A stretch of 64,000 nt of DNA from Candidatus Poribacteria bacterium (lineage in GTDB: Bacteria; Poribacteria; WGA-4E; WGA-3G). The notes beneath the pieces are model-generated. The model ran no database searches. It was not told where the DNA came from and saw nothing but the letters and a program-made list of their open reading frames with translations. How positions within the stretch are numbered: position 1 is the first letter of the stretch; each line of letters begins with the position of its first letter. Position numbers and translations under genes: made by a program. The stretch spans positions 8,828 through 72,827 of the forward strand of contig JAJDXV010000098.1 of the NCBI GenBank assembly GCA_022823085.1. Direction: 5' to 3'. This document shows, in pieces, positions 39,815 through 58,690 of this stretch.

Positions 39815-41296
39815 TTATTTCTCTCGCAGTCCCTCTTCCCAGCGGAACTGCGTCTCTCGCCTTGCGCCGAGACTCTGAAGTTTTTCAGTTATCCGCATTG
39901 TTTGTTCAATGAGAAGGGCCTCGCATCCGATCGTTTCAACGTTGAGTCGTAACAAGGGTTCGGTGTTCGACTCTCGGAGATTGAACCGCCAACGGGTGGG
40001 TTTCAAACCCTTATGAACACATGAGTGGAAATCTGGGAGAAATCTGACAGATAGACCGTCAACTGGTGTTTCAAGACAGGGGCGGTTCCCCCAAGCGTCT
40101 ATTGTTTTTTGGACGACATCCATAGCATCTCGCATCTGAGAGCGGGTTTCAAAGGAAAAGTTAATCTCACCGGAAACGGGGTATGCTGCTCGGAAGGGGT
40201 CTACAGCTTCAGCGAGGGACTTTCCACTTTCGTTGAGGTATTCAAGGACGAGTAGAAACGGGATCATGCCATTATCGGTATGGAAATTATCTTTGAAGTA
40301 ATAGTGTCCGCTCGCCTCTCCTGCGAACAAGGCCCCGGTTTTTTGCATACGGGTTTTGATAAACGAATGCCCACATCGGTTGAGAATCGGTGTCCCATTT
40401 GCGGTGACAACGGCGTTTTCTACCGCCCATACGGCTCTTGGATCAAAGATGACAGCACCCTTTTCTTGTTCCCGGAGGCATTTTTCAGCGAGCAGTGCCG
40501 TAATATAGCAGCCCTCAACGAACATTCCATTTTCATCGAAGAAAAAACATCTGTCGGCATCAGCATCCCATGCCACTGCTAAATCTGCACCCTTCCGCTT
40601 AACTGCCGCCGTGGTTAATTTACGATTCTCCGGTCTGAGTGGGTCGGGTCTGCCTGCCGGGATCTGGGAGAATGTTCCATCGGGTTGCGTAAATAACCGT
40701 TCACAGATTTCGATGGGTGTCTCGGCTAACAAGCGGTTAGCGACCTGTCCAGCAAGTCCGTTATTGGCGTTGATGACAATGCGCCTGTTAGATAACTCCT
40801 CGGCGTTTACAAACGAGCGAAGGTGTTCCAAATAGACATCTAAAAACGAAACAGATTCAAGGGTGCCGCTACGGTGGGTATTTCCGTTTAGAGATAAAGT
40901 TTTCCTTTCAAGGATATCGCGAAGATCGAGAAGCCCTGTATTCGCGGATAGCGGTGCGGCATGCTGACGGACGAGTTTCATGCCGTTATATGCCGCTGGA
41001 TTGTGAGATGCCGAGATGATAATACCTCCGTCTGTCTGGTAGTGGACTACAGCGAAATAGAGCATATCCGTAGAGATCCGACCGAGATTGAGAACATCAA
41101 CACCAGCGTCAAGGAGTCCCTCGGCGACTTGCTGGTAGAGCTGGAAAGAACTCTCGCGGACATCGTGTCCCAAGGCGACGGTTTTAGGTTGAAAGCGCGC
41201 TGCATACGCACGGGCGATTTGATAGAAATCCTCGGGTTGGAAATCGACACCAAAAATACCCCGAATATCATACGCCTGGAAGATGTCACGGTTCAT
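39815..41296 (-). CDS. Phosphomannomutase/phosphoglucomutase
   Basis: MNRDIFQAYDIRGIFG..., active-site ISASHNPAAYNGMK, ...GEASGHYYF. The start is set at the ATG overlapping the upstream stop (TAATG) rather than the longer ORF. Confidence 0.85.
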   Translation of the reverse strand: MNRDIFQAYDIRGIFGVDFQPEDFYQIARAYAARFQPKTVALGHDVRESSFQLYQQVAEGLLDAGVDVLNLGRISTDMLYFAVVHYQTDGGIIISASHNPAAYNGMKLVRQHAAPLSANTGLLDLRDILERKTLSLNGNTHRSGTLESVSFLDVYLEHLRSFVNAEELSNRRIVINANNGLAGQVANRLLAETPIEICERLFTQPDGTFSQIPAGRPDPLRPENRKLTTAAVKRKGADLAVAWDADADRCFFFDENGMFVEGCYITALLAEKCLREQEKGAVIFDPRAVWAVENAVVTANGTPILNRCGHSFIKTRMQKTGALFAGEASGHYYFKDNFHTDNGMIPFLLVLEYLNESGKSLAEAVDPFRAAYPVSGEINFSFETRSQMRDAMDVVQKTIDAWGNRPCLETPVDGLSVRFLPDFHSCVHKGLKPTRWRFNLRESNTEPLLRLNVETIGCEALLIEQTMRITEKLQSLGARRETQFRWEEGLREK

Positions 41297-41991
41297 TAGA
41301 AAACTCCATTTTGGAAGTGTTGTTGGGCATACGCCAGCCGCGCCGGGACACCAATGTCGATCCAATCCGCATGGGCTTGTAAAGTATAAAGACCCCGAAC
41401 ATTGGGGAAAACATCGCGCTCAATTGAGAAGCTCTCCTGATCTTTCGGAAACGCGTCAGCAATCGTCTTGCTGAAGATGTATACACCACTGTTGATGTAA
41501 CCCGGGCGACAGACGGATTGTTTCTCGCGGAAGGCTTTGACTTTTCCATCGCCATCGGAGACGATCTCGCCGTAGGCGTGAATATCGTCAACACGCACAC
41601 TCAGTAGCACACCTAACATGTCTTGCTGAAACTTCTGTAACATCTCGCGCAGCGAAAAGTTAGCGAGGAGTACGTCGCCGTTGAGAACGAAAAAAGGCGA
41701 TGTGCTGATATGTCTCATGGCATTCTGAATAGCACCACCCGTGCCGAGTCTCTTCTCCTCTTTGGCGTATCGAACACGCACACCGGCGTAGGAAGTACCG
41801 ACGCGTTCATAAATCACATCATGGAGGTGTCCCGATGCGAGGATAACTTCGTCAACATTGGTCTCTTTTAGCAGTTGGATCTGCCAGTCCAACACCGTTT
41901 TACCTGCAATTTGAAGCAGAATTTTGGGGACTGTCTTTGTCAGGTTCCCTAACCGTGTCGCTAGCCCGCCACATAAAATGATCGCTTGCAT
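41296..41991 (-). CDS. Sugar-1-phosphate nucleotidyltransferase (NTP_transferase family)
   Basis: MQAIILCGGLATRLGNLTKTVPKILLQIAGK..., ...GTGGAIQNA.... Confidence 0.8.
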   Translation of the reverse strand: MQAIILCGGLATRLGNLTKTVPKILLQIAGKTVLDWQIQLLKETNVDEVILASGHLHDVIYERVGTSYAGVRVRYAKEEKRLGTGGAIQNAMRHISTSPFFVLNGDVLLANFSLREMLQKFQQDMLGVLLSVRVDDIHAYGEIVSDGDGKVKAFREKQSVCRPGYINSGVYIFSKTIADAFPKDQESFSIERDVFPNVRGLYTLQAHADWIDIGVPARLAYAQQHFQNGVF

Positions 41992-43451: not shown

Positions 43452-45281
43452 TCAGCTAAAATTTTTTCCGTATTTTTCCGATTGCATTCGATATAATGTT
43501 GCATACCGCCCACCTTTGTTCATCAGTTGATCGTGTGTACCTTCCTCAAGAACTTGCCCTTGGTCAATGACGAGAATTCTGTCTGCCATGCGGACGGTCG
43601 AAAAACGGTGAGAGATTAACAAGGTTGACACACCTTCCGTAAGAATTTTGAAGCGTTGAAAGAGGCCGTATTCAGATTCTGCATCGAGTGCGGCTGTCGG
43701 TTCATCAAGGATAAGGATTTGTGCATCTCTCATAAATGCGCGCGAGATGGCGATTTTCTGCCACTCTCCACCAGATAAATCGACACCGCCTTCAAATTGT
43801 CGACCCAGCTGTGTCTGGTAGCCTTCAGACATCTTTGAAACCACGGCATCCGCTTGGCCTTGCTCGGCAGCCTGAATCACCGCGGTATCGTTGTTAACTT
43901 GTGCTACATTCCCAATACCGATGTTTTCGCCTGCGGTCAAGAAAAAGCGCGAGAAATCCTGAAAGACGGGGGCGATTTTCTGGCGTAAACTATCAAGGCG
44001 ATACCGGTCTAGTGGAACATCGTCAATGAATATCTCACCTTGTGTTGGGTCATAGAAACGACAGAGTAGTTTTACAAGCGTCGTTTTGCCAACACCGTTT
44101 TCTCCAACGATAGCGAGTGTCTCTCCGGCGTTTATTGAAAAGGAGATGTTGTTAAACACGGATTGCTTACGCCCTGGATAAGAGAAAGAGACATTCCTAA
44201 ACTCGACAGATCGGCTAATGTGAGAAAACTCCTGGGGTGCCTCAACTGTTTTAAGTGCAGGCACCAAATCAAAGAAGGACCAGAAAGAACGAAGACCCGC
44301 CGTCGAACCGATAAGTTGTCCCGCCATCAAGGTCAGCATCCAGAAACTCTGTTGCATCGAGGCAACGATGGAAAAATACATTGCCAAGTCCCCTACAGTA
44401 ATTTTCCCCTGGACCGAAATCAGCACGACGTAGGCGTATAAGAGTGTAAGTCCAATCCCATGCAAGAGTGAAAAAAGTACTGTGCTTCTCGTATGCGAAA
44501 TTTTCACGGAACGAACGCGTTTGAAAACCGTGTCAAAAAGTTCGCGGTACTGGTTGATAAAGTAACCACCGAGGTTAAAGAGTTTTATCTCTTTTGCACT
44601 TTTTGTATCAACAAGGAGTCGGTTGTAGTATGCCAATTGCCGCGATTCGGGCATCTGGTCCCAAGTAACGTCAAAGGCATATCTGTAATGGTGATATTCA
44701 ACCCACAGGTGAGGCAGAGCAACCAAGAGCATTGCAACAGGGATGAACGGACTGATTGTGGTCGTTAAGATCAATAGGGAGATTAAGGTAATCCCGTTGC
44801 TAAGCGTAGACGACATAAGCCATAATGTGCTTTCAGGGAGTGTTGTGTTCTCTTGGATAAATCGGAGTTGATTGTAAAATTGACTCTCATCAAAATGCAC
44901 CATCCCTGGTAGTTTCGATGCCTTTTTCATAACCTTTTTATCTATGTCAGCGATAAGCAGATCCGAAAGCGTACTACGGATTGCCTCTGATGCTGGCATC
45001 AGAATGAAGGGAAGGACTTGACAGACGAGGTAGCTAATACCCCAAAACACTGTTATGTTTTCTAATGAACTTCCCGCCTTCAGGAGTGTCACCACGTCAT
45101 TGACAAGTCGGTTGAGCAACGCAGCAGAAATCGCAGGGAGGCCGCTCGAAACAACCAGCAATAGCAGCAGTAAAGTGGTTAGTTTCGCTGAGCTGCGCCA
45201 GGCGACAGGAAGCATTCTCAGGCTTAATTTTGCCGCATCCACAACTTGTGTTGTCCAAGAACGTAATTTTTTAAACATCAT
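43452..45281 (-). CDS. ABC exporter, fused TMD-NBD half-transporter
   Basis: Six-TM N-half. Walker A GENGVGKTT, signature LSGGEWQKIAISRA, Walker B ILILDEPTAALD. Overlaps the upstream paralogue by 11 nt. Confidence 0.85.
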   Translation of the reverse strand: MMFKKLRSWTTQVVDAAKLSLRMLPVAWRSSAKLTTLLLLLLVVSSGLPAISAALLNRLVNDVVTLLKAGSSLENITVFWGISYLVCQVLPFILMPASEAIRSTLSDLLIADIDKKVMKKASKLPGMVHFDESQFYNQLRFIQENTTLPESTLWLMSSTLSNGITLISLLILTTTISPFIPVAMLLVALPHLWVEYHHYRYAFDVTWDQMPESRQLAYYNRLLVDTKSAKEIKLFNLGGYFINQYRELFDTVFKRVRSVKISHTRSTVLFSLLHGIGLTLLYAYVVLISVQGKITVGDLAMYFSIVASMQQSFWMLTLMAGQLIGSTAGLRSFWSFFDLVPALKTVEAPQEFSHISRSVEFRNVSFSYPGRKQSVFNNISFSINAGETLAIVGENGVGKTTLVKLLCRFYDPTQGEIFIDDVPLDRYRLDSLRQKIAPVFQDFSRFFLTAGENIGIGNVAQVNNDTAVIQAAEQGQADAVVSKMSEGYQTQLGRQFEGGVDLSGGEWQKIAISRAFMRDAQILILDEPTAALDAESEYGLFQRFKILTEGVSTLLISHRFSTVRMADRILVIDQGQVLEEGTHDQLMNKGGRYATLYRMQSEKYGKNFS

Positions 45282-47121
45282 AGTGCTCCGCTTGTAGGTT
45301 GTATAGTCTGGCGTATAGGCCCTTACGCTTCATCAGTTCGTCATGTGCGCCTTCCTCGATGAGTTTTCCGCCATCAAGCACGAGAATCCTGTCTGCCATG
45401 CGTACAGTTGACATGCGATGCGAAATCAATATGGTTGTTTTATCTTTCGTTAGTTCTTGAAAACGTGCGTAGATTTCGTATTCGCTTCGCACATCCAAGG
45501 CAGCTGTTGGTTCATCAAGGATAAGGATTTGTGCGTTTCGGATAAGGGCACGGGCGATCGCGATTTTTTGCCATTGTCCACCTGAGAGTTCTGTGCCATC
45601 TTCAAACTGACGAGAGAGTATCGTTTCATATCCATTTGGAAGTTGGTCGATGAAATCTGCACCTGCGTCTTTAGCAGCGGCTTTTATGAATCCCATTTGG
45701 GAAAGTTGCGCGACATTGCCGAGACCAATGTTTTCTTGGACGCTGAGTTGATATTTGAGAAAGTCTTGGTCAACAACGCCCATTTGGTGCCGTAAATTGT
45801 CGAGGTTAAAATAGTGGATAGGGGCATCCTCGAGCCTAATTTCACCATCAGTTGGGTCATACATTCGGGTAATCAATTTAACTAGAGTTGTTTTCCCTTC
45901 TCCATTTTTGCCGACGATTGCCACGGTCTCCTTAGGGTGAATATGGAAGGAAACACCATCCAAAATCTTCCGCTCCGTGTTAGGGTATTGAAAGTGGACC
46001 TCTTTGAAGGCAATACCTTTCTCAAGGGATCGTGGGACACGTTTGGCGAATGCTTTCGGGACCATTTTAATCGCTGGCTTCCTTTTCAGAAAATCGTAAA
46101 GATGCGTCAAAAAGCCGCCGATCTGATGCATGAAAGCAAAATTAGCGAGAGATGTGTTCAGCGTCGTCCACGCGAGAATCGTAGCACCACCATAAGCGGT
46201 AAGTTCACCAACACTTACCTCACCACCGATTGTCTGTCGAAAGAGATAGACATAAAGAGCACACAAGCCCACACCACCTAACAGGGCATACAGTGAAAGC
46301 GAACGAAATTCACGCCATCGGACTGACCACAGCACGCTAAGAATGCGTTTAAAAGTACGCACATATTGTCCTAAAAAGAAATCGTGAAGCCCAAAAATAC
46401 GCACATCTTTGGCTGTTTCGTTAAAAAGAAACTGGTTCCTGAAATAGTCGAGTTTTCTGGCTTCTGGTGCCTGAAATTGAATCGCGATTCCAGCAAGATT
46501 GGCGTAACGATATTGCATCAAGGCGTAGGGTAACGCGCATAAAATTAAAAGAATTGGTGCTAACGGGTGAAACAACGAAAGAAACAGAGCAGTTGACAAT
46601 AATTCCCAACAATCTCGACCGGCTTGAAAAGCGTAGATAACTAAGTCAGCACTACTTCGCTCAATATGCCGGACCTGTTGGAGTTGGTCATGGAGTTTTG
46701 GATCTTCAATGTGGGCAAGGTCGGGATGTCGATTCGAAGCTTCCATAACAAGAAGTGTCAAATGACGGCGCATTCTGTCGCCAAGGATGCTTTTAACCGC
46801 AAGGAAAATCGGTCCTGTTGTTTGCAAGACGACGGTGGCAAGTGCTAACACCATCAAGACCGGAGCTACCTCACCGAAGTCCCCCTCGTTTGAACCAGAG
46901 ATAGCGATGACCATGTCAATCACATCTCGGCTCAAGTAGAGAATCAGCACGGGTAGCAAACCTTGGATGAACATTAAGAAAAAAATAAGTAGGGTCTCAA
47001 ATTTTCCGGCGGCCCATATCATTCCGAAAGACCGGAAAATCGCTTTGTAAACCGGACCCCATTCTTTTACAGGTGGATTCCACTGTTCAAGTTTGATATC
47101 AGATGCTTTGTGTTGTTTCAT
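45271..47121 (-). CDS. ABC exporter, fused TMD-NBD half-transporter (likely heterodimer partner)
   Basis: Walker A GKNGEGKTT, signature LSGGQWQKIAIARA, Walker B ILILDEPTAALD. Confidence 0.85.
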   Translation of the reverse strand: MKQHKASDIKLEQWNPPVKEWGPVYKAIFRSFGMIWAAGKFETLLIFFLMFIQGLLPVLILYLSRDVIDMVIAISGSNEGDFGEVAPVLMVLALATVVLQTTGPIFLAVKSILGDRMRRHLTLLVMEASNRHPDLAHIEDPKLHDQLQQVRHIERSSADLVIYAFQAGRDCWELLSTALFLSLFHPLAPILLILCALPYALMQYRYANLAGIAIQFQAPEARKLDYFRNQFLFNETAKDVRIFGLHDFFLGQYVRTFKRILSVLWSVRWREFRSLSLYALLGGVGLCALYVYLFRQTIGGEVSVGELTAYGGATILAWTTLNTSLANFAFMHQIGGFLTHLYDFLKRKPAIKMVPKAFAKRVPRSLEKGIAFKEVHFQYPNTERKILDGVSFHIHPKETVAIVGKNGEGKTTLVKLITRMYDPTDGEIRLEDAPIHYFNLDNLRHQMGVVDQDFLKYQLSVQENIGLGNVAQLSQMGFIKAAAKDAGADFIDQLPNGYETILSRQFEDGTELSGGQWQKIAIARALIRNAQILILDEPTAALDVRSEYEIYARFQELTKDKTTILISHRMSTVRMADRILVLDGGKLIEEGAHDELMKRKGLYARLYNLQAEHYDV

Positions 47122-47139: not shown

Positions 47140-48132
47140 TCAGATGGCATCCTGTTGGTTGATTTCAAGGGCTCGCTGTAATTCGCCACCCCACTGTTGT
47201 AGTGTAGAGTGCACGTAACGCCGTCTCTTAGTATTCCAGCTGGGATGAATATCAACTGTCCATTTCCAGACACAATTTAGAGTCGCAGGAAACGAGCGAA
47301 TCTGGAGATCTATTAAATCTCCTGCTCTAACAGTACAAGGTTTAAGGATTGGGAAAAAAATATTATCCCAACTTAGAACTGGGGATGGCGGTTCGTTGGT
47401 TAACCACGTGTTTTCCGAGAGTTGAGCATTAAACCAGCCACAGAAACCGTGTAACACCCCGTCGTTCTCAATTTGAAAAGTGACTCGTTCGTTCAACATA
47501 GAGTGTTCTGGCATGTTTGCGAAATCAATTGTGTGTAATTGCGCCGGTGCAGATAAGAAGTTGGTTTTATTAAACCGGTTGCTATACACTTCGTTGAGAG
47601 CCGTTTCTCGTGCCAAAGAAAAATCAAGATTATAGAAATCTGAAGACCAGACATCAATGGTGTTGTAAAAATCTGCGTCTTGGATTGGAACAATCGTCAT
47701 TTCCAGCCAAGAGGGCAAGGATTTCCCACCGGGTTTCAGGAATCGTCGCTGGGCATCAGAGATGACATCGACTAAATTTTGACCTACACCAAACTTAGAA
47801 ATCAACTCTGAGATAATTACATCTGCCTTCGTTGGCAGTTCGATCTTCCGAGAATCCTGATTAATAAAAACTACTTGATCCACGAGCCCGTTGGCTTCGG
47901 CGATGGCTTTGGCAATCTCGATAATTTTAGTTCTTTCAATCGCGTAGACCCGCTTTGCTCCGGCTTGACAAGCGAAAAAGGAGAGGACTCCGCTTCCGGC
48001 ACCGATATCTACTACAGTATCCCCTTTTTTTACTGTTTCAAAGATACTCTGACGGTAGCGTTCATTTCGGAGCGTGTCAGCGACTAAGACCCCGTGAAAT
48101 TCTGTGCTATCAAAATCAAAAGACAAAATCAC
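47140..48132 (-). CDS. PRMT-like (protein arginine N-methyltransferase-like) class I SAM-dependent methyltransferase
   Basis: HGVLVADTLRNERYRQSI (PRMT H..ML.D..R...Y), motif I VVDIGAGSGVLSFFACQAGAKRVYAIE, KADVIISELISKFGVGQN (double-E-loop position), then a ~150-aa beta-barrel-sized C-terminal half. Confidence 0.6.
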   Translation of the reverse strand: MILSFDFDSTEFHGVLVADTLRNERYRQSIFETVKKGDTVVDIGAGSGVLSFFACQAGAKRVYAIERTKIIEIAKAIAEANGLVDQVVFINQDSRKIELPTKADVIISELISKFGVGQNLVDVISDAQRRFLKPGGKSLPSWLEMTIVPIQDADFYNTIDVWSSDFYNLDFSLARETALNEVYSNRFNKTNFLSAPAQLHTIDFANMPEHSMLNERVTFQIENDGVLHGFCGWFNAQLSENTWLTNEPPSPVLSWDNIFFPILKPCTVRAGDLIDLQIRSFPATLNCVWKWTVDIHPSWNTKRRRYVHSTLQQWGGELQRALEINQQDAI

Positions 48133-48138
48133 TTCCTC

Positions 48139-49215
48139 CTAATTGAGATGTGATAAAATAATATCAGCTGCAGTTTGAGAGGCATTGTCGTATTGGTAGA
48201 CGGATGCTGCCTCTGCCATCTCTTGCTGCTTTTGCGGTGAACTGAGAATTGATTCAACCAACGCAGCTAACCTGTTTCCAGTAATCTCATCAAAGTCCAC
48301 AGGGGCCGTGATGCCTAATCGTTTCAAATTCATTACATGAAAAGTGTCGACGGCATTACCACCATCTATTATTGAAATCGACGGAACCCCAAATCGTGCG
48401 AGTTCGCAGAGCGTCCCAAACGATCCACGCGTAATAGCGAGCGTACTCACCGCCTGCAAGCGCAGAATGTTCCAATCCCATGACTTGACTACAGCGTACG
48501 GATAGTCTGTTAACTTTTGGCGATAATAATCCGCATCCTCTCCAGCAATTAGGATAAGTCCATATTGCTTTGGGTCAAGTTTCATGTACGTATCGACAGC
48601 AGATGCTAACATCTCTTTGCGTCGGGACTGGCTATTTCCGCCCATACTCACAAAAATTAGCGGTAAATCCGCTGGCACGCCTAATTCTTGCCTTACTGAG
48701 AGTCCCCCATCTTCGAGCGGTTCAGCTGTTCGTAAGATGGGTCCGATAAAAGAGACCGGAACTTTTAGTGTCGGCGGAACAGTATGCCCTGATTCTATAT
48801 CCCGTATTACAATTTCCGTAGCGCAATTGAAAAAACGCGCCAATAAGCCGGTAAATGCTGTCATATCGCCCAACTCCTCAAAAAACCAGTGTGTAATAAG
48901 GACGCTGGGGATATTATATTTTTTTGCTACAGGTAAAGCATAAAAAACTTCATGTGTAACAATAATATCCGGTTCGACTGAAGGGATAATGCTCTGAAGT
49001 GCGCTCAATTCTTTCTGCGTGTACTCATCGTCGAGTTCCATCTCAAGATCCAAGGCACTTCGCCCATTAGACGAGATAGCCTTAAGTCCATCAGCATAAG
49101 AACCGAGGATGATATTTACATCCGGTCGCATGGATTCCAAACGATCTACGACCATTAGATCGGGGATTGCGTGTCCAAAGCCTCGCCCACGTGAAAAATA
49201 GAGAATTTTTGGCAT
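48139..49215 (-). CDS. GT1/GT28-like (MGT/UDP-glycosyltransferase-type) glycosyltransferase
   Basis: From ATG 49215: MPKILYFSRGRGFGHAIPDLMV... and C-terminal ...TRGSFGTLCELARFGVPSISI.... Confidence 0.6.
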   Translation of the reverse strand: MPKILYFSRGRGFGHAIPDLMVVDRLESMRPDVNIILGSYADGLKAISSNGRSALDLEMELDDEYTQKELSALQSIIPSVEPDIIVTHEVFYALPVAKKYNIPSVLITHWFFEELGDMTAFTGLLARFFNCATEIVIRDIESGHTVPPTLKVPVSFIGPILRTAEPLEDGGLSVRQELGVPADLPLIFVSMGGNSQSRRKEMLASAVDTYMKLDPKQYGLILIAGEDADYYRQKLTDYPYAVVKSWDWNILRLQAVSTLAITRGSFGTLCELARFGVPSISIIDGGNAVDTFHVMNLKRLGITAPVDFDEITGNRLAALVESILSSPQKQQEMAEAASVYQYDNASQTAADIILSHLN

Positions 49216-49346
49216 AGCAAATGTCCTTTTATAGTGAATTCCAAAAATAAGTTTACATTTTAAAGTTCCCAAATTCCCCCCTGATAAGGGGGGTTAGGGG
49301 GTTCTTTTGTTTGGCAGTGTGCAATTAATTATGAGATCCACTATAA

Positions 49347-50003
49347 TTAAATTCTGCCGAGTCGTCGCTGCTCAATGATGTGTTTTACGCCAACATCAAG
49401 CAGTGCTGTCGGTCCGTTATGTTTCAGACCTTCAATGTACATTTCAACAGGCGCAATTCCCGGATAGATCCGTTCCGCTGTAAAAAGCGCAACAGGGTGC
49501 CCCTTCGCTCTGTCAACTTCGGCTTTCAAGATGGCAACGACCGTTTCCCGTAACAGTGCGGTATTCGTCCAATTCGCTTTAAACACAACTTGACCGTTTC
49601 GGTCAACGATGAAACTCATGTTAGGACCGTACCCATATCGTTTGTGAGCATATTCATCCCATCCATCAACCCATACAGGGCGAGAAATACAATTTTTCGC
49701 CCTGAAGTCAGAGGCACGTTCCATTTTTTCTTCAAAAGAGAAAAGTTCAGGATAATTCTCACCCGGGTGTGCCTCTTTGGTATAGACGAATAACACTTCG
49801 ACCCCTCGATGTTGATAATCCTTATACAGTCGATCCATTGACGGAGACTCCGCCACACAATACGGTCACGTCATACTTCCAAACTCAAGGACAACTAACT
49901 TTCCTCTAAGATCCGACAATTTCACGAATTTATTGTCAGTGTCAGTTGCTTCAAAGGGAGGGGCAGGTCCCAATACATTAATTCTTCTTCTCGGTATGCT
50001 CAT
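49347..50003 (-). CDS. Thioredoxin-fold (AhpC/TSA/redoxin-like) protein with an in-frame TGA at the first position of the redox motif (T-U-P-Y-C); candidate selenoprotein
   Basis: ATG at 50003..50001 opens MSIPRRRINVLGPAPPFEATDTDNKFVKLSDLRGKLVVLEFGSMT-TGA(49868..49866)-PYCVAESPSMDRLYKDYQHRGVEVLFVY.... It is in frame with track ORF 49347..49856, which only starts at a GTG 4 codons after the TGA. Confidence 0.55.
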
Positions 50004-50094: not shown

Positions 50095-52038
50095 TCACTT
50101 GGTTGTGTATCGCCTCAACCAGAGCTCAAGCGATAATGTATTAACCACATTCCCAATTTTTTCCCAGTCCCCGAGCATCCATCGAGAAAGGATCCCTCGC
50201 AAGCGCTCCCGGTTGACGTATCCTCTTTTAACCACCTCAACCGCATCTTGGTCTAACTGCGTTATCAGTTCGGGTAATGCAAGCTTTAACCCCTTCATGG
50301 CATGTCTTCCCAGATTCGGTTGGCTAAGGCGGTTTCGGATCATATCGGGTAGAATACCTTTCATTCCGTTGCGGATGAGGAGTTTCCTTACGATTCTTCC
50401 TTTTGCGTCGACAGTGATTCTATGGTGCATTGGGACACCCATAACATATTCGACAAGCCGTTGGTCAAAGAAAGGCTGACGGATTTCGATATTCAGTGGG
50501 CAGTAGACGACTTGAACCGCCTGACATGAGTTACTTTCACGTAGATACCGATATTCAAGCCGCAGCGATTTTTTATGACAATCTCTATCAGGAATTAAAC
50601 GTCGTATACGCTGGGTAACAGCTTGTTCCCGAGCAAAGCGTTCGTCGAGCCATTCAGGAATCATTGGACCCGTATCTTCTACACCGATATGATTCCAGAA
50701 TTCCAGCGGCTTTCGGATAATTGCGCCCACGAAGGGTTGCATGAAATATGGGATGTGCGGTTTAATCCCAAACTCTGATAATGCATACAGATAAGACATG
50801 TTAGGTGCACGTGCCCATTTCGACAATTCGCCTCTGAGTTTTCTGAACTTTCCATCGCGGAGCAAATCTGCGATATTTAGCGCACTTCCTTGCATAATCT
50901 CGTCGCCCCCGATTCCAGAAAACAGAACAGTTGCTCCAAAATCGTTGGCGGCTTCAGGGGTTAGGTAGTGTTCATGACAAGCGAGATAAACGCCGTAGGG
51001 TTCATCGGGACACGGGTAAGATTCCGTACTTTGCATGAAAAGCCGATCATCCGTCGGGATCCTCCGATTGATGAGATTATACTTCTGTATAACTGATTGC
51101 TGATAGCTTGCTTCGTCTGCTTCTCTAAAGACGTCAAACCCTTTTGATAGCGTAAGCAATTCATTGTTCGGCATCTCGCCGCTTTGATAGATGTCAGCCG
51201 CCATTGAAACAATAGACGAGGAATCTAATCCGCCGCTCAATTCAGAAGCGATGGGTGCTTTATTACGCATCCTGCATTTTACAGCTTCACGAAATGCTTC
51301 CCTGAAGCCGTCAGCATAATCGTCTGGATCGGAATACTGTATTTCTTTTATCCCTGCCGTGGACCAGTATTCAACTGGTTCGGAAATGCCACGCTGATCT
51401 ACCCAAATATAGCAGGCAGGAGGTAGACGCTTAACACCCTTAATTGCTGTGTTTGGCGAATTCAGCGATCCAGTCACCGGATTTAATAGAAAATCTGCCA
51501 TATATTCATTATTGAGTTCCCTTGATATTCGCGGATGCTCATAAAATTGCGCGATTGTCGAGCCAAATATAAGGGTCCGATCAACAAGCGTATAATATAA
51601 AGGTCTCATACCTGCATAATCCCGGGCACAAAACAGGCGTTGTTGTTTTTTGTCCCAGATTGCAAAAGCATAGTCACCGATAATACGTTTTACACAGTCA
51701 GCACCCCACCGTTTATAGGCAGCAAGGATTAACTCAACATCCGTGACAATACGTTCTTTCGCATTAATACCGCAATGCTTGATTAACGCTTCTCGATTAT
51801 CAACGCGTCCGTCAGAAACGATACATAAGGAACCGGATTCGTCTGAAAAGGGCTGATGCTCCCATTGCGATTCCTCTGTTGTATGGAATTGACACTGTCC
51901 CATGCCTATTTGCCTGTCAACGAAATTACTTATTTTCTTGCCGCCTCGCCGAACGCGCGTGACAACCATCATCTTTTGTAATAATTCTTGGTTAACAGGC
52001 GAAGCATCTAAATTAAATAGTCCTGCAAAACCACCCAT
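50095..52038 (-). CDS. Lasso peptide cyclase (asparagine synthetase B-like, C protein)
   Basis: MGGFAGLF... N-terminus without the Cys2 nucleophile. PP-loop SELSGGLDSSSIV. 647 aa, directly downstream of B1/B2. Confidence 0.85.
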   Translation of the reverse strand: MGGFAGLFNLDASPVNQELLQKMMVVTRVRRGGKKISNFVDRQIGMGQCQFHTTEESQWEHQPFSDESGSLCIVSDGRVDNREALIKHCGINAKERIVTDVELILAAYKRWGADCVKRIIGDYAFAIWDKKQQRLFCARDYAGMRPLYYTLVDRTLIFGSTIAQFYEHPRISRELNNEYMADFLLNPVTGSLNSPNTAIKGVKRLPPACYIWVDQRGISEPVEYWSTAGIKEIQYSDPDDYADGFREAFREAVKCRMRNKAPIASELSGGLDSSSIVSMAADIYQSGEMPNNELLTLSKGFDVFREADEASYQQSVIQKYNLINRRIPTDDRLFMQSTESYPCPDEPYGVYLACHEHYLTPEAANDFGATVLFSGIGGDEIMQGSALNIADLLRDGKFRKLRGELSKWARAPNMSYLYALSEFGIKPHIPYFMQPFVGAIIRKPLEFWNHIGVEDTGPMIPEWLDERFAREQAVTQRIRRLIPDRDCHKKSLRLEYRYLRESNSCQAVQVVYCPLNIEIRQPFFDQRLVEYVMGVPMHHRITVDAKGRIVRKLLIRNGMKGILPDMIRNRLSQPNLGRHAMKGLKLALPELITQLDQDAVEVVKRGYVNRERLRGILSRWMLGDWEKIGNVVNTLSLELWLRRYTTK

Positions 52039-52058: not shown

Positions 52059-52472
52059 CTATTTCACAGAAACCTTCACATATCTTTCTTTAACAATATC
52101 TCCGTCGTTGACAACTCGCCCGTTACATTCAACCCAGGCATGAAAAGTAAGTGGTGGATACTTGCTACATCCCAAACAGAGCTGAGCAGGTATACCTTCG
52201 CGCCGCAGGAGAGAATAGACAACCAGTGATCTTTCCAGACATTCAATTCGACGTCTGATATACAGACGAAATGATTTTTTTGCAATTTTGACGGTTTTGG
52301 AAATCTTTTCCCAATCAACCTCCGCTTCCTGACTTCCCGTTGATTTTTGCCATTTGAGTATGGTTCTGACAACTTGATGAAACCCAAAAGACCACAAACC
52401 AAAGTCAATCAAAAATATCAGGACGTATGCACGAAGAAATGTTGAGCTGTCTCTTATAATCTGTTTAGCCAT
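52059..52472 (-). CDS. Lasso peptide leader peptidase (B2, transglutaminase-like Cys protease)
   Basis: CLERSLVVYSLLRREGIPAQLCLG ... FHAWVECNGRVVND (Cys/His/Asp triad pattern). Confidence 0.85.
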   Translation of the reverse strand: MAKQIIRDSSTFLRAYVLIFLIDFGLWSFGFHQVVRTILKWQKSTGSQEAEVDWEKISKTVKIAKKSFRLYIRRRIECLERSLVVYSLLRREGIPAQLCLGCSKYPPLTFHAWVECNGRVVNDGDIVKERYVKVSVK

Positions 52473-52746
52473 CGGTTATCTCCAGTAAGTTGTTCTCCTG
52501 AAGCGCATTAAACAACGCTATCAAATCCTCTCGGAGCGTTTCCTCAGGGACATCATACTCTGTCTTGAGTTGCTCAAGAATCGGGCCAAGTTTATTTTCT
52601 TCTTCAAGCAAGGAAAAAACGTCTGTTCCGACACTACCGACGCCATAAAAATCGCCCGTTTCAAAATTGAGCAACACCAGATCGTCATCTACGATCGCTT
52701 TTTCAACGTGTTCTGGTATTGTGAAAATCGATGTATCTGTAATCAT
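52465..52746 (-). CDS. Lasso peptide B1 protein (stand-alone PqqD-family RRE)
   Basis: 93 aa, ...AIVDDDLVLLNFETGDFYGVGSVGTDVFSLLEEENKLGPILEQLKTEYDVPEETLREDLIALFNALQENNLL. Overlaps both neighbouring genes. Confidence 0.85.
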   Translation of the reverse strand: MITDTSIFTIPEHVEKAIVDDDLVLLNFETGDFYGVGSVGTDVFSLLEEENKLGPILEQLKTEYDVPEETLREDLIALFNALQENNLLEITDG

Positions 52747-54371
52747 TGTATTACCTCTATATTGTTTGGGATTGGTTTAGTCAACCGAGAAGAACTTTGC
52801 ACAACAATTCCTTCTCGCAGCAGGTTCCGAAGTGATGCCTTTATTTCCGCTTCAGATCCAACGTCGGCTAACGCCGAGATAAGCGTTTGCGTTTTGATAG
52901 CATCAGAAGCATCCAAATACTGAATAATCGCTTTTTCAGCGTCGTCAATTTCGTAAGTCCGTGCCCACACAGGATCTTGCATCTCTATTGCATGAGCCTT
53001 TACATGATAAAAAAGCGTCCCGAGGGACAAGATATTTTCCGCGCAAAGTTCTTCGGTAACGTATCCTGAACTATAGGGGAGAATTATTTTTGAGTAAAAC
53101 TCATAGTTTTGCTTGGTGTATCGAGGTCTCCTCGTGATCAGAGAAGTAATAGCACCTTCATTTTCTCGGTCGTATTGTGCGTTCATGAGGGCGTATTTCA
53201 AACCAAATCGGCTCATCTGGTTTCCATCCGTCGAATGCTTTGAGGTCTTCAAACAACCATCAACAATAGCGCACAATTTCTGTTCAAAGCGACGACGACT
53301 AAATTTTGACAGGACAGTCCGACGTGCTGCATCTCCTATCTCTTCTCTCTCTTCTCTTGACGCAATGAGTCTCGCAGAGTAATGAAGCACCGAGTGTAAA
53401 TCCACGCGGATACCCCAGTCGGTTACAAAGGTATCGACCTGAAATCCAGTTTTTCCGTGCTCAATGGTATCCTTCAAACCACCCCAACTTGTACCTATGA
53501 CAGGCGTGCCACAACTCATTGCTTCAACTTGGGTTAAACCAAAGTTCTCATCGTGATGTATCGTCAGATTCATGAATACATCGGCAATATTGTAAAGAAT
53601 CGGAAGCGCCTCTTGGTCGATATATGGAAGCATTCTGACCCGTTCTTTTACGTCACGGTTCTCGTCCAATAATTTGGAAAAGAGTACATCCAACGCATTG
53701 GGACCCGATTCAAATTCCTCAAATTTAACATCATCAATAGGTCCGACGATTAGCAGTCGGACATTCGGATACAGCTTTACTAATTTTTTGAAGACGGACA
53801 AGATGGAATGGACATTTTTTTCAGAAGTTATACGACCCACATACAAAAACACGACATCATCAGGATCAAAGCCGAAGTGTTTACGATATTCTTCCTGCTG
53901 CTCGGTAGAGAGAGGGCTAAGCATCTGCTCATCAGCAAAGAAGGGTAACATCGTTTCCGTCGCCGCACATTGGTCCGACATGAGGTGATAAATTTCCCGA
54001 TCCGCCGCACATGAAAACGCAATAGCATCGCCGGGCTGAAAATGAAAGAACGTACGTCTAAAATTGTAGGCACCCCGAGGGAACTCACCTAGCGGGAGGT
54101 ACACGACAGGTTGATCCAACGCAAGTTCCTCGCGGAAAACAAAAAATTCCGGCAGATCCCGATTGACGATGAGATCGCATTCCTTTAAAAAGGCTTTTCC
54201 GATCTCCTCACGCTGTTTAACATCCAGAAATGGATAATATACAGGCAAACGTCTCACCGTGTAATGTTTACTGAGGATCTTCTCAATTTCCGAGAAGACG
54301 ACTCTTAGACTTGAACCTGGAGATTCAGTTATCGTGTGGCGTGTTAGTCCAATTATTGGTTTAGTATCCAT
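52743..54371 (-). CDS. GT4-family glycosyltransferase with a C-terminal RRE/wHTH-like extension
   Basis: ENFGLTQVEAMSCGTPVIGTSWGGLKDTIEHGKTGF. The C-terminal ~90 aa, ...WARTYEIDDAEKAIIQYLDASDAIKTQTLISALADVGSEAEIKASLRNLLREGIVV, has the beta-beta-helix pattern of PqqD-like domains. ATG at 54371 lies behind GAAGGAAG. Confidence 0.65.
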   Translation of the reverse strand: MDTKPIIGLTRHTITESPGSSLRVVFSEIEKILSKHYTVRRLPVYYPFLDVKQREEIGKAFLKECDLIVNRDLPEFFVFREELALDQPVVYLPLGEFPRGAYNFRRTFFHFQPGDAIAFSCAADREIYHLMSDQCAATETMLPFFADEQMLSPLSTEQQEEYRKHFGFDPDDVVFLYVGRITSEKNVHSILSVFKKLVKLYPNVRLLIVGPIDDVKFEEFESGPNALDVLFSKLLDENRDVKERVRMLPYIDQEALPILYNIADVFMNLTIHHDENFGLTQVEAMSCGTPVIGTSWGGLKDTIEHGKTGFQVDTFVTDWGIRVDLHSVLHYSARLIASREEREEIGDAARRTVLSKFSRRRFEQKLCAIVDGCLKTSKHSTDGNQMSRFGLKYALMNAQYDRENEGAITSLITRRPRYTKQNYEFYSKIILPYSSGYVTEELCAENILSLGTLFYHVKAHAIEMQDPVWARTYEIDDAEKAIIQYLDASDAIKTQTLISALADVGSEAEIKASLRNLLREGIVVQSSSRLTKPIPNNIEVIQ

Positions 54372-54523
54372 CTTGTCTTCCTTCAAGTGTATAAACAGTA
54401 GTCGGGCAGCCTACGGCTTTCCCAATATCCAATAAAATTTGGATTGCTTGATGTCCGAGTTTTCAATGATAGAACTCTATCGGACATTCGTAAAAAAAAC
54501 GTGGGTGTATCGAAATAGCCTTT

Positions 54524-54670
54524 CTAACAATTGGTGTTTGCATGGGTTCGCCCACCACTGGAATCATATACAGTAGGAGTAGAACCTTTAACAAGGGTTC
54601 TGGCATTGCCATACTTGACAACCCGTGGTGCCGTGTAGGCTTTCTTCTTGGATTTCAACACCTTACGCAT
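54524..54670 (-). CDS. Lasso precursor peptide A
   Basis: GGAGG RBS. MRKVLKSKKKAYTAPRVVKYGNARTLVK/GSTPTVYDSSGGRTHANTNC. The leader fits YxxPxLxxxG; the predicted core has Gly1 and Asp8. Confidence 0.8.
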   Translation of the reverse strand: MRKVLKSKKKAYTAPRVVKYGNARTLVKGSTPTVYDSSGGRTHANTNC

Positions 54671-55028: not shown

Positions 55029-55151
55029 CTATATTGAGAATCCACGGATGTCTTGTTTCTCATCAAATCAAATATTTAAGCGACGCTCCGGGCACAATGT
55101 TGGAGTGCCTTTTCTGTTTGACAACAATCAAACAGAAAAGGCATCTCTTAT

Positions 55152-55298
55152 GTTAACAGTTCGGTGGGCAATACTTTCTACCGCCACCTGTCTCATACTG
55201 ACAAGTGCTACTCCCTTTAACTAGAATAGTGGCATTGCCATATCTAACTAACCGGGGTGCTTCGTAGGTTTTCTTTTCAGGCTTCAGCATCTTACGCA
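55152..55298 (-). CDS. Lasso precursor peptide B
   Basis: AAAGGAGGTG RBS. MRKMLKPEKKTYEAPRLVRYGNATILVK/GSSTCQYETGGGRKYCPPNC. Confidence 0.8.
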
Positions 55299-55370
55299 TC
55301 GTTTTCACCTCCTTTCATATATTAATTTAGACACTCGACTGAAAAGTCGCATTCCACTCGTTACTGAGTG

Positions 55371-55511
55371 TTAACAGTTATGGTTTCTACGAGTACATGA
55401 GCCATCATAGAGTGGGCTTCCACCACTTTTTACGAGCACCGTGGCGTTGCCGTAACTGACTAACCGGGGTGCTTCGTAGGTTTTCTTTTCAGGCTTCAGC
55501 ATCTTACGCAT
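55371..55511 (-). CDS. Lasso precursor peptide C
   Basis: Identical RBS and leader DNA to B. MRKMLKPEKKTYEAPRLVSYGNATVLVK/SGGSPLYDGSCTRRNHNC. Confidence 0.75.
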   Translation of the reverse strand: MRKMLKPEKKTYEAPRLVSYGNATVLVKSGGSPLYDGSCTRRNHNC

Positions 55512-55581
55512 CGTTTTCACCTCCTTTCATATATTAATTTAGATATGCGACGAAAAGGTCGCAAACCACTTATTAGAAACA

Positions 55582-55709
55582 TTAGGTGTTATTCCGAGCA
55601 CTTGATTCATACTGAACAATGCCAGAGCCTTTGATTAACGCGGTAGCATTGCCGTAGCTAACTGAGATACTTGATAGTCTTTCTTTGTTGACTTTAACAT
55701 CTTACGCAT
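55582..55709 (-). pseudogene. Decayed lasso precursor copy D
   Basis: No RBS. MRKMLKSTKKDYQVSQL, then a 4-nt deletion relative to its siblings. The shifted frame still reads YGNATALIK/GSGIVQYESSARNNT*. Confidence 0.65.
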
Positions 55710-55776
55710 TTTTTCTTTTTTCAAACTTTAATTTGCAAACATGACTGAAAAATCGAAAAACACTCGCTACCGAGTA

Positions 55777-55917
55777 TTAGTAATTAGAGTTTTTGCGAGT
55801 ACCTCCGCAATCAAGATTTTTGGTTCCACCATTTTTTATGAGCACCATGGCATTGCCGTAGCTGACCAACTGAGGTGTTTCGTAGGTTTTCTTTCCAGAT
55901 ATGAACATCTTACGCAT
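55777..55917 (-). CDS. Lasso precursor peptide E
   Basis: AAAGGA RBS. MRKMFISGKKTYETPQLVSYGNAMVLIK/NGGTKNLDCGGTRKNSNY. Confidence 0.7.
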   Translation of the reverse strand: MRKMFISGKKTYETPQLVSYGNAMVLIKNGGTKNLDCGGTRKNSNY

Positions 55918-56090: not shown

Positions 56091-56798
56091 CTATACGCTC
56101 CTCAAAGCTTCAAAATCGGCGTTAAAGAAGTTGCTGGATTCATAGGAGAGTGGGTGCCCAACGGATTTCACTTCTTGAATCTGTATTTCTATACCATAAT
56201 CTATCATCCGCTGGAGGGCATTTGTGAGCTGATATTTTCCATTTCGGAGGTGTCCTGCCTGAATCAACTCATCCAGACACGCAAAGAGCAATTTGCTTTC
56301 TCGAATGAAATAACATCCTGCAATCACTAAGTCTGTCCGTCTCGGTTTATGAATTAAGCATCCAACGATGCCATCTCTGAGTTCGACTAAACCGTAAGGT
56401 TTCTCATCAACGATACGCCGGACAGCAATTGTTGAGCACTGACTTTGCGTAAACGCTGTCCAGTTCAGATTTACGCCTGCTTCCGCCTCGACGATGAGCA
56501 GCGGTTCCTCAGAGATATGATTACTGGCTAACGAAATCGAGTGCCCTAATCCTTTTTCTTCCGTCTGTTCAATGAAAGAAGCCGTCATCTCACTATAGTT
56601 AGCCTCCATATAGGCTTGAATCGGGTTGGTTGGATAATCGGTGATAAATATAAACTCAGACACCGGCAGTTTGCACAAGGGTTGAATCAAATGTGTAAGA
56701 GTCGGGCGCCCCTTGTATTGAGGTAGCGGGTCAGAGATCCGATCTGTATGTGGTACGAACGGCGATGTGTTTTCTGTAAATGGAAAGATTACTTTCAT
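56091..56798 (-). CDS. Sugar-phosphate nucleotidyltransferase-like protein
   Basis: ...KGRPTLTHLIQPL...EKGLGHSISLA...EKPYGLVEL.DG.V..LIHKP...VIAGCYF...GKYQLTNALQRMIDYG... (NTP_transferase pattern). Confidence 0.55.
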   Translation of the reverse strand: MKVIFPFTENTSPFVPHTDRISDPLPQYKGRPTLTHLIQPLCKLPVSEFIFITDYPTNPIQAYMEANYSEMTASFIEQTEEKGLGHSISLASNHISEEPLLIVEAEAGVNLNWTAFTQSQCSTIAVRRIVDEKPYGLVELRDGIVGCLIHKPRRTDLVIAGCYFIRESKLLFACLDELIQAGHLRNGKYQLTNALQRMIDYGIEIQIQEVKSVGHPLSYESSNFFNADFEALRSV

Positions 56799-57799: not shown

Positions 57800-57985
57800 C
57801 TTTCTGCCTTTTCGTCCTCATAAGCGGCGTTGATGGGTACGAGGATGTCTTGGCAGAACTCTTCAGCGAGGATGGCGTTGATTTCTGCGGTGACCTACCA
57901 CCTTTTTTGATACACTGCGAGGGAGGCGTGTTCAAGGAATCGTTATAGGACGATGTAGGATTGTATTCTTTCTATGGATGTGATT
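57800..57985 (-). pseudogene. Rep gene remnant (3' end), interrupted by IS3 sequence
   Basis: DNA is alignable with 7360-7540. The translation ...RIQSYIVL*..VTAEINAILAEEFCQDILVPINAAYEDEKAE compares with Rep ...RIQSYIVRQRL...MVTAEINAILAAEFCQDLIAPVQTAYEDEKEK. Confidence 0.7.
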
Positions 57986-58341
57986 CCGCTTGTCGATAGA
58001 TAGGCCTTTGAAAGATACTGTACACCTTGATCGGAATGATGTATCTCAGGGACGCTTCGGTGTAATGCTGCTTCCAGGGGTTTCAACGTCAGCGGTTGCA
58101 TCAGATGTTGACTGAGCTGCCACGCTCTAATCATCCGAGTGAAGACATCCATGAGTAGAAAAACATAGACGAAGCGTCCCTTGAGACGCACATAGGTAAT
58201 ATCAGACACCCAGACCTGATCCTGATGAGAGACATTAAGGGTTTCAAGACGGTTACGCCAAGGCTTCTCTCCCTGAAGCGATGTTGTTGTTTGACAGGCA
58301 CGCTTGACGGCGACCAACAGATTATGGGTTTGTACTGCCAT
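57986..58341 (-). pseudogene. IS3-family OrfB (rve/DDE integrase core) fragment, 5'-truncated
   Basis: ...DQVWVSDITYVRLKGRFVYVFLLMDVFTRMIRAWQLS...VPEIHHSDQGVQYLSKAYL. Its 5' end abuts the left end of the oppositely oriented IS3 copy. Confidence 0.7.
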
Positions 58342-58405
58342 CGGAAATTAGGGCCACCCCCTAAACCAAGATTGTATAATACAATCTCACTGAAAGGAGC
58401 ATCCG

Positions 58406-58690
58406 ATGGCGAAACGAAAACGAAGAAACTTCACCCCCGAGTTTAAAGCGGCGGTCGTTCTGGAGGCCCTCCGCGGTGAAAGTTCCCAAGCAGAACTGTG
58501 TCGTCGACACAACCTCAGCGATGACCAACTCTCGAAGTGGAAGCAGCAGTTTCTTGAAAATGCAGCGTCTCTCTTTGCATCGAACGATAAGGCATCTGAA
58601 GATGCTGCGGAACGCATCGCGCACCTTGAGCAGCTCGTTGGGCGGTTGACTGTGGCCCTGGACATCGAAAAAAAGCCTCAACCTGGTTGA
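58406..58690 (+). CDS. IS3-family transposase OrfA (HTH)
   Basis: 94 aa, classic IS3/IS911 OrfA N-terminus. Confidence 0.8.
   Translation: MAKRKRRNFTPEFKAAVVLEALRGESSQAELCRRHNLSDDQLSKWKQQFLENAASLFASNDKASEDAAERIAHLEQLVGRLTVALDIEKKPQPG

Follow-up and report, generated by a model that had tools for sequence, protein, structure and literature searches.

A PRMT-fold methyltransferase encoded in a lasso peptide operon of a Candidatus Poribacteria bacterium and its candidate acceptor residues

The methyltransferase gene, its start and its family

The window, a contig stretch of 64,000 nucleotides from a Candidatus Poribacteria bacterium, carries a gene cluster for lasso peptides, since B1, B2 and C were all detected with Pfam and NCBIfam (Table 1). 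Within this cluster, an open reading frame (ORF) on the minus strand (47140-48132) encodes a protein with the fold of protein arginine methyltransferases (PRMTs), which use S-adenosylmethionine (SAM). It is preceded after 6 nt by a gene for a MurG/GT28-like glycosyltransferase and followed after 18 nt by the first of two genes for ATP-binding cassette (ABC) exporters, all on the minus strand. The methyltransferase ORF comprises 330 codons when read from GTG 48132. However, the region 5' of the start (TTAGGAGGAAGTGATTTTGTCT) contains an AGGAGG box, which shares sequence with the stop codon of the gene before it and lies 8 nt before TTG 48126. The gene call in the protein database, P0001 (328 aa, 100% identical), starts at TTG 48126, too. 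As ribosome-binding site and gene call point to the same codon, TTG 48126 is probably the true start and the product 328 aa long. An exact look-up of the 330 aa translation yielded no match; the database holds the 328 aa version P0001.

The protein matches the Pfam families PRMT_C (52 bits, cut-off 27) and PRMT5_C (47.4 bits, cut-off 30.3) as well as generic Rossmann methyltransferase models. In a phmmer search of the PDB, the best 60 matches are all PRMTs, with PRMT2 (2e-33), CARM1 (5e-31) and PRMT6 (5e-29) among them. PRMT8, PRMT3, PRMT1, PRMT7 and PRMT5 were found, too (best hits between E=2e-33 and 1e-19, far from what chance would give). When the barrel half was searched alone against the PDB, PRMT5 was the best match (4e-7). 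From 12 homologues, AlphaFold2 gave a model with a mean predicted local distance difference test score (pLDDT) of 84.5 and a predicted template modelling score (pTM) of 0.82. Using Foldseek, this model was compared with the PDB: The top 50 matches are all PRMTs (TM 0.75-0.83). The C-terminal beta-barrel is present in the model with its strands at residues 183-309. Around residues 151-181, where the question of a PRMT dimerisation arm arises, the model contains a short insertion that is helical and has lower confidence (pLDDT 63-74). Judged by sequence and model, the protein is a member of the PRMT family with a complete two-domain architecture. This settles in favour of PRMTs a point on which a previous sequence-only reading had allowed for another class I methyltransferase clade. 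O-methyltransferases of the StspM/LasF type or of the protein isoaspartate methyltransferase (PIMT) type were considered and rejected: No O-methyltransferase or PCMT family is among the Pfam matches, and the sole sign of PIMT is an NCBIfam match of 17 bits, far below the cut-off of 188 bits. Among the prokaryotic annotation families of NCBIfam, no match above any cut-off was obtained.

The N-terminal helix reads H13..L16(V17).D19..R22...Y26. In the alignments, the spacing of His, Asp, Arg and Tyr is the same as in PRMT1, PRMT2 and CARM1; the PRMT1 counterparts are H45, D51, R54 and Y58. All 12 homologues share H13, R22 and Y26, and D19 reaches a conservation of at least 90% among them. Motif I, VVDIGAGSGVLS, occupies residues 40-51, and its core VVDIGAGSG (40-48) aligns to PRMT2 and CARM1, as does the ribose-binding Glu66. 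Both motif I and Glu66 are invariant in the clade. ADVIISE corresponds to residues 103-109, with E109 aligned to the first Glu of the double-E loop. The second Glu, found in PRMT2 within FEYM and in CARM1 within NERM, is Gln118 here (GVGQNLV), nine residues after E109. This Gln is no alignment artefact because the spacing is identical to that in PRMT2 and CARM1. Gln118 and Asn119 are invariant in the four closest homologues. The second catalytic Glu is E153 in PRMT1 and E444 in PRMT5.

The THW loop is represented by L253-S254-W255-D256, which aligns to F577-S578-W579-F580 of PRMT5 and to T-H-W of PRMT2. Its Trp (W255) is invariant among the 12 homologues. Since S254-W255 aligns to S578-W579, Ser instead of His is the PRMT5 state and not a defect. 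By these alignments, the departures from a working PRMT pocket would be two: Gln118 and the clade-specific Asp256 after the Trp. With F580 of PRMT5 as part of the wall of the arginine tunnel, Asp256 could compensate for the lost Glu charge; its placement in the tunnel is derived from the PRMT5 alignment and the PRMT5 structure.

The sequence-only reading had described a gene between a glycosyltransferase and ABC exporters on one strand with short gaps, and a product with a PRMT-type N-terminal helix, a SAM motif and a double-E loop. Gene position, helix and SAM motif are all borne out, the latter as PRMT motif I. For the double-E loop, only half of the description holds: ADVIISE does lie at the position of the first Glu, but with Gln118 at that of the second, the loop is incomplete.

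Precursor peptides and related loci

To define the cores, their start was set by the canonical YxxPxLxxxG leader spacing (Tyr-17, Pro-14, Leu-12, Gly-8). The four intact precursors of the window have the features of lasso precursors: this leader, a small first core residue and an Asp/Glu within positions 7-9. At position -2, they carry Val or Ile and not the usual Thr, and one core begins with Asn. All four have Asp or Glu at core position 8 and Arg at core position 13, so that the Arg13 previously noticed in every intact core is found in four of four cores aligned by leader spacing. In related loci, the core SGPVNQSYDTVCSRTKQNS has a 9-residue ring, and its Arg is again located five residues after the ring acceptor (acceptor+5). 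Further cores from these loci are AGGNSQYDGGGLRNAC, TGGSQAYDATCTRQVNC, AGGSQAYDANCTRKVNC, GNGNCQFETGGTRQHCG and GSHNCQYETGGGRTECG. The core EKGNSMYETGGGKNNC (L002, 4715-4861) has Lys in place of Arg at acceptor+5 and Glu at position 1; its precursor may be in decay, or it may be a natural substrate variant in which Lys has replaced Arg. Altogether, 10 of 11 cores from five loci have Arg at acceptor+5, and the eleventh has Lys. No other nucleophilic side chain of the cores is conserved to this degree. In the precursor alignment, this is the sole tail column with at least 90% conservation, and the other tail positions are variable. The residue before the Arg is Gly, Thr or Ser. Type I PRMTs favour Gly-flanked Arg residues (GAR/RGG motifs), and the neighbourhood of the core Arg recalls this Gly-rich context.

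Two further elements were observed near the precursor genes. A truncated fifth precursor-like ORF (55635-55724, minus strand, MKKEKMRKMLKSTKKDYQVSQLATAMLPR) between precursors 1 and 2 looks like a decayed precursor copy. Directly 3' of precursor gene 3, a perfect 17-bp stem-loop is located at 55105-55144. It may be a partial terminator or a stabiliser that sets the ratio of precursor to enzyme transcripts. A promoter and terminator scan of the window between 39 and 57 kb gave counts not above those of shuffled sequences and yields no information on operon boundaries.

The nearest homologues of the methyltransferase are P0002 (76% identity, locus L002), P0003 (49-50%, L003) and P0004 (50%, L004, which continues in L102). 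In the scan of GTDB genomes described below, the nearest match is a protein with 50% identity in L005, which belongs to a Latescibacterota metagenome-assembled genome (MAG). L002, L003, L005 and L004/L102 share the gene order B1, B2, C, (precursors), thioredoxin-like gene, (0 to 2 variable genes), methyltransferase, ABC, ABC. None of the related loci found has lost the methyltransferase (about 50-76% identity). A profile built from ten precursors was searched against 5.8 billion proteins. All its matches are on contigs that carry the methyltransferase, and the same precursor family was never found without it among these proteins. A metagenome scan with the clade-1 profile revealed no further close relatives, only homologues with 27-41% identity. 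Thus, the clade of the window is rare, with five loci. Tight spacing and conserved position support the view that the methyltransferase is an integral part of this family of lasso operons, and it is very probable from the sequence comparisons that the gene encodes a lasso-tailoring methyltransferase.

PRMT-fold genes in other lasso clusters and the residue that is methylated

When one genome per GTDB species was scanned with the family profile, 80 loci were obtained. A locus was classified as lasso-linked if a cyclase homologue (E < 1e-30) was located within 6 kb of the PRMT-fold gene. This applies to 24 of the 80 loci, and usually B1 and a precursor with a YxxPxL leader are present as well. 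The lasso-linked hosts are Terriglobia, other Acidobacteriota, Deltaproteobacteria-type MAGs, Binataceae, Planctomycetia, Omnitrophota and Vicinamibacterales; the phyla spanned include Acidobacteriota, Desulfobacterota, Planctomycetota, Omnitrophota and Latescibacterota, among others. Of the 57 loci without an assigned lasso precursor, about 30 of them from Nitrospirales, 53 have kept both Glu residues of the double-E loop (E..E), mostly together with (T/S)HW. The lasso-linked genes mostly lack E..E, and their pocket motif goes with the composition of the core.

At least four pocket types can be distinguished. Type (a), the canonical E..E, is found in L012, L063, L065 and L077 with cores that have one to three Arg and no Lys, e.g. 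NIVRNAVRDGGSNSQRT. The L012 core GTSANVTDAGVRQAC resembles ...GGGLRNAC of the window family. Type (b) is D..(Q)G, and the residue preceding the Trp is acidic; it is present in ten Terriglobia loci (L016, L025, L026, L031, L042, L047, L048, L051, L061, L066), in nine of which a precursor was identified; L054, L088 and L091 are similar. Here, the cores always contain Lys and often no Arg, e.g. GGFGSVVEMMQMTNLMKHP. Type (c), D..(E)A with Arg at the place of the Trp, occurs in L017, L021, L055, L068, L072 and L079. The cores end with Cys-Leu and mostly lack a basic residue; that of L055 has one Arg and two Lys, that of L068 one Lys. Type (d), E..Q with S-W-D, comprises the window clade and the loci L018 and L096. 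Strongly conserved core C-termini among the lasso-linked families are MKHP (e.g. in L031 and L061), CL, NLTP and QRT, and several core families have neither Arg nor Lys. Taken together, these comparisons suggest that PRMT-fold methyltransferases occur repeatedly in lasso clusters and form an enzyme class, apparently not described so far, whose clade-specific pockets follow core composition. The window cluster represents one of the rarer pocket types.

Outside the lasso clusters (L101 1277-1399 and L099 2229-3236), the two nearest outgroup methyltransferases, P0005 and P0014, are each followed by a gene with a CxxxCxxC motif. By eye, its product looks like a B12-binding radical SAM enzyme. In L101, a gene for a 40 aa peptide (MKKKKKWVKPMLTVLVRPKDRAEQALKLQCGKYSCYNGQM) lies between P0005 and the radical-SAM-like gene. 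This context may belong to a different class of peptides made by ribosomes and modified after translation (RiPPs) that also uses a PRMT-fold enzyme.

Our leading, if tentative, explanation for the window is a PRMT-fold N-methyltransferase that acts as a dedicated lasso tailoring enzyme on Arg13. The enzyme would bind the segment that follows the ring, which is flexible and rich in Gly/Thr (GGR, GGGR, GTR, CTR). Arg13 would enter a narrow pocket composed of Glu109, Gln118, Leu16 and the Ser254-Trp255-Asp256 loop, and one or two methyl groups would be transferred to a guanidino nitrogen (+14 or +28 Da). The clade-specific Asp256 would replace the charge of the missing second Glu. Arg13 is favoured because of the PRMT ancestry, the two acidic pocket residues and the near-invariant Arg in a Gly-rich context, and because canonical pockets elsewhere match Arg-bearing cores, one of them similar to that of the window family.

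Several observations weigh against Arg13. Only one Glu (Glu109) of the double-E loop is left, and E-to-Q mutants of PRMT1 have little activity left. Above all, L018 and L096, which form the sister group of the window clade in a neighbour-joining tree, combine the same pocket with Arg-free cores: These cores, GISYNPLDGISNLTP and variants, contain neither Arg nor Lys, but an invariant Tyr4 and an invariant Asn12. Other lasso-linked PRMT-fold clades go with Arg-free cores, too. Within the window clade, Tyr at acceptor-1 and the penultimate Asn, each found in 8 of the 10 cores in the tabulation, come close to the Arg in conservation, and every core has at least one Cys. Finally, Arg13 may be conserved just for structure, as a steric plug, or for target binding. 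Hence, of the previous proposal of arginine methylation, the PRMT family, the operon gene and the conserved Arg have stood up to scrutiny, while Gln118 and the Arg-free cores of the sister group speak against its central point.

PRMT-fold enzymes are known almost exclusively as protein modifiers of eukaryotes. In a broader context, they might have been recruited repeatedly into lasso clusters, with pockets matched to their acceptors and with the first RiPP side-chain N-methylarginine in the window. We regard this as a real possibility, albeit with reservations. The E..E and E..Q/S-W-D pockets would then serve Arg, the D..G/(D/E)-W pocket Lys and the other types non-basic acceptors, and in the window a Glu/Asp pair would do the job of the canonical Glu/Glu pair.

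The sequence-only reading had named methylation of another nucleophile as its fallback, and because of Gln118 and the Arg-free sister cores, this remains a serious rival, although we consider it rather doubtful. Candidates are a carboxamide nitrogen of Asn/Gln (the penultimate or another tail residue), the Tyr7 phenol, the thiol of a free Cys, Lys or the carboxylate at the C-terminus. With Gln118, the former guanidinium pocket might be retuned, e.g. such that Gln is the donor of a hydrogen bond to a carbonyl oxygen, whereas Glu was the acceptor of one from =NH2+. The conserved Tyr and Asn residues of both the sister group and the window clade, as well as the Cys residues, would offer acceptors. 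Moreover, the clades with other pockets whose cores lack basic residues and end with Cys-Leu point clearly to a retargeting of the fold within lasso clusters. Yet no candidate is as constant as the Arg at acceptor+5, since one core lacks a tail Asn and two lack the Tyr. The pocket also retains two acidic residues, Glu109 and Asp256, which suit a cationic side chain. Furthermore, in L018 and L096 the methyltransferase gene lies between two precursor genes and C/PqqD on the opposite strand; this layout is the same in both loci, but the link to the lasso genes is only a conserved adjacency across opposite strands. No PRMT-fold enzyme is known to methylate O, S or amide N. On the other hand, N-methylation of Asn side chains by other enzymes, PoyE, AerE and PbtM1, is known in RiPPs (PMC11285071).

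It is unlikely that the substrate is not the lasso peptide at all but free L-arginine or a cellular protein, e.g. the target of the peptide in the sense of self-protection. Other substrates must exist for the 56 of 80 bacterial PRMT-fold loci, including those of Nitrospirales, that are not beside lasso genes. A free-arginine N-methyltransferase, SznE, is found in a natural-product pathway (PMC12637814), and with Pfam no recognisable leader-binding domain (RiPP recognition element, RRE) was detected in the methyltransferase. However, the gene is tightly placed between tailoring and export genes, it has kept this position across loci diverged to 50% identity, and the precursor family has never been found without it. 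Compared with the non-lasso homologues, of which most have kept E..E, the active-site loops are divergent, and immunity could plausibly be provided already by the two ABC exporters.

It is very improbable that the protein is a catalytically dead pseudo-enzyme with a role as scaffold or chaperone. Gln118 at the position of an essential Glu would fit such a role, and degenerate PRMT modules exist in PRMT7 and PRMT9. Against this, the SAM-binding elements motif I, Glu66, Asp19, Arg22 and His13 are all invariant across the clade, and the invariance of Gln118, Asn119 and Asp256 indicates selection on a working pocket. O-methylation of a sugar attached by the neighbouring glycosyltransferases, suggested by the position directly after the GT28-like gene and by three GT4-like genes as well as NTP-transferase and phosphomannomutase genes in the cluster, is hardly credible and was rejected, because the methyltransferase persists in L003 and L005 without any glycosyltransferase homologue within 20 kb and in L002 with just a GT28-like fragment; sugar substrates are not known for the PRMT fold, either.

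If Arg13 is indeed the acceptor, N-methylation of the Arg side chain would be a new lasso and, according to the reviews cited below, a new RiPP modification. Methyl-Arg would alter charge distribution, hydrogen bonding, the bulk of a residue that is likely a steric lock and the resistance to trypsin-like proteases. Bacterial PRMT homologues would gain their first defined, small and genetically linked substrate and, with it, convenient models of PRMT substrate recognition and product specificity. The natural Glu-to-Gln variant and the pocket motifs of the clades would constitute a natural experiment on the retargeting of PRMT pockets. Lasso peptides are sought as scaffolds for antibiotics and enzyme inhibitors, and new tailoring enzymes widen the range of what can be built. 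The breadth of the family (24 of 80 genome loci) provides a usable handle for genome mining.

Neighbouring genes and comparison with known systems

Table 1. Coordinates of the lasso cluster genes in the window.
Feature	Position	Strand	Evidence
PRMT-fold SAM-dependent methyltransferase	47140..48132	-	Pfam, PDB phmmer, AlphaFold2/Foldseek, ribosome-binding site
Precursor peptide 4, core GSTPTVYDSSGGRTHANTNC (D8, R13)	54524..54670	-	leader spacing; called protein in precursor-profile search
Precursor peptide 3, core GSSTCQYETGGGRKYCPPNC (E8, R13)	55153..55308	-	leader spacing; precursor-profile search
Precursor peptide 2, core SGGSPLYDGSCTRRNHNC (D8, R13)	55371..55520	-	leader spacing; precursor-profile search
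Precursor peptide 1, core NGGTKNLDCGGTRKNSNY (D8, R13)	55777..55917	-	leader spacing; precursor-profile search
GT4-family glycosyltransferase with C-terminal extension, between precursors and B1	52743..54386	-	Pfam Glycos_transf_1 5e-32
B1, PqqD-like RiPP recognition element	52465..52746	-	Pfam PqqD 1.3e-13; NCBIfam lasso_PqqD
B2, transglutaminase-like leader peptidase	52059..52472	-	NCBIfam lasso_biosyn_B2 78 bits (cut-off 33)
C, asparagine-synthetase-like lasso cyclase	50095..52038	-	Pfam Asn_synthase 1e-36; NCBIfam lasso cyclase 8e-117
Thioredoxin-fold (AhpC/TSA, deiodinase-like) protein, in-frame TGA 49866-49868 in U/C-P-Y-C motif	49347..50003	-	
MurG/GT28-like (GT-B fold) glycosyltransferase	48139..49272	-	Pfam Glyco_tran_28_C 4e-8
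ABC exporter 1	45271..47121	-	directly 3' of methyltransferase in each related locus
ABC exporter 2	43452..45281	-	Pfam; same order in related loci

The thioredoxin-fold gene adjoins the methyltransferase region in all related loci. It had been listed as a 169 aa ORF, but the reading frame is open further upstream past a single TGA (...VVLEFGSMT[TGA]PYCVAESPS...). The L002 homologue has an in-frame TGA at the same site with synonymous changes around it, and the L003 and L005 homologues have Cys (TCPYC). Because of this classic selenocysteine/Cys pair, the product is probably a selenoprotein (about 218 aa) that has a redox motif, U-P-Y-C, and is conserved in this family of lasso clusters. About 14 nt after the TGA, a 7-bp hairpin is found in both the window and L002; it is no more stable than shuffled sequence. 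A selenocysteine insertion sequence (SECIS) element in this gene is supported neither by an Rfam match nor by folding energy.

Besides the GT4-family gene, whose C-terminal extension comprises about 170 aa, and the MurG/GT28-like gene, the minus strand carries five more sugar genes (36521-38266, 35096-36505, 41296-41991, 39815-41365 and 56091-56798). They code for two more GT4-like proteins, two nucleoside triphosphate (NTP) transferases and a phosphomannomutase. By eye, the N-terminal segments of the two further GT4-like proteins look like PqqD-type peptide-binding regions. The products of the cluster are probably glycosylated lasso peptides. As the one described lasso glycosyltransferase that we found, IgtG, is a membrane GT2 (PMC11912497), the glycosyltransferases of the window would be different enzymes.

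On the plus strand, a 594 aa protein (59723-61507) has an N-terminal RRM_1 domain (3e-18) fused to a RAMP-superfamily domain (4e-8), a combination that is unusual for a CRISPR-type RAMP protein. Transposase fragments (57943-59438) adjoin this gene.

Three reviews, on lasso modifications (2022, PMC9266682), on RiPP methyltransferases (2024, PMC11285071) and on interlocked peptides (June 2026, PMC13352647), were consulted. The lasso modifications listed there are disulfides, phosphorylation, C-terminal methyl esters, acetylation, hydroxylation, epimerisation, citrullination, aspartimide, chlorination and prenylation of Trp, aromatic cross-links, Ser glycosylation and a second isopeptide bond. 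Neither Arg methylation nor side-chain N-methylation of lasso peptides is included up to June 2026, in agreement with the novelty that had been tentatively claimed for the reaction. No paper that links lasso peptides or RiPPs to PRMT-type enzymes or methylarginine was found in the searched literature, which is thin on subscription journals, so that this is no proof. Each component is of a known kind, i.e. lasso tailoring by a SAM methyltransferase on the one hand and the PRMT family on the other; their combination is not yet reported for lasso peptides.

Known lasso methyltransferases are the C-terminal carboxyl O-methyltransferases LasF and StspM and the PIMT-type Asp O-methyltransferases TceM and LihM (PMC9266682, PMC13352647). 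Like the enzyme of the window, they are SAM-dependent and tailor peptides within lasso clusters. However, they methylate carboxylates, and their folds are unrelated to that of the window protein: StspM was modelled on mitomycin 7-O-methyltransferase, and TceM and LihM are PIMT homologues. N-methyltransferases of RiPPs comprise PoyE, AerE and PbtM1, which act on Asn, as well as CypM and PznL, which act on N-termini. They share SAM-dependent N-methylation of ribosomal peptides with the proposed enzyme, but none is reported to act on a guanidino group or described as PRMT-fold; among RiPPs, N-methylated side chains are reported for Asn and Lys (PMC11285071). SznE N-methylates free L-arginine in streptozotocin biosynthesis (PMC12637814). 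By its description, it resembles the proposed enzyme as a bacterial arginine N-methyltransferase of a natural-product pathway, but it uses a free amino acid and is not part of a RiPP cluster.

Other bacterial PRMT-fold proteins from Nitrospirales, Acidobacteriota, Desulfobacterota and other MAGs belong to the same family (33-44% identity). Their non-lasso members, which mostly (53 of 57) differ by E..E and (T/S)HW, bear only automatic names such as 'L11 methyltransferase'. With eukaryotic PRMTs, the window protein shares the two-domain architecture, Asp and Arg of the SAM-binding helix, motif I, the ribose Glu, the first double-E Glu and the loop Trp. Its catalytic half is closest to PRMT1/2/CARM1/6/8, its beta-barrel half to PRMT5 with Ser before the Trp. 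It differs from PRMTs by Gln118 for the second Glu and by Asp after the loop Trp, a position occupied by Phe in PRMT5 and by Lys in zebrafish PRMT2. Unlike eukaryotic PRMTs, it has a very short N-terminus without accessory domains, and it is a bacterial protein encoded in a RiPP operon, whose presumed substrate is a peptide of 16-20 residues and not a protein.

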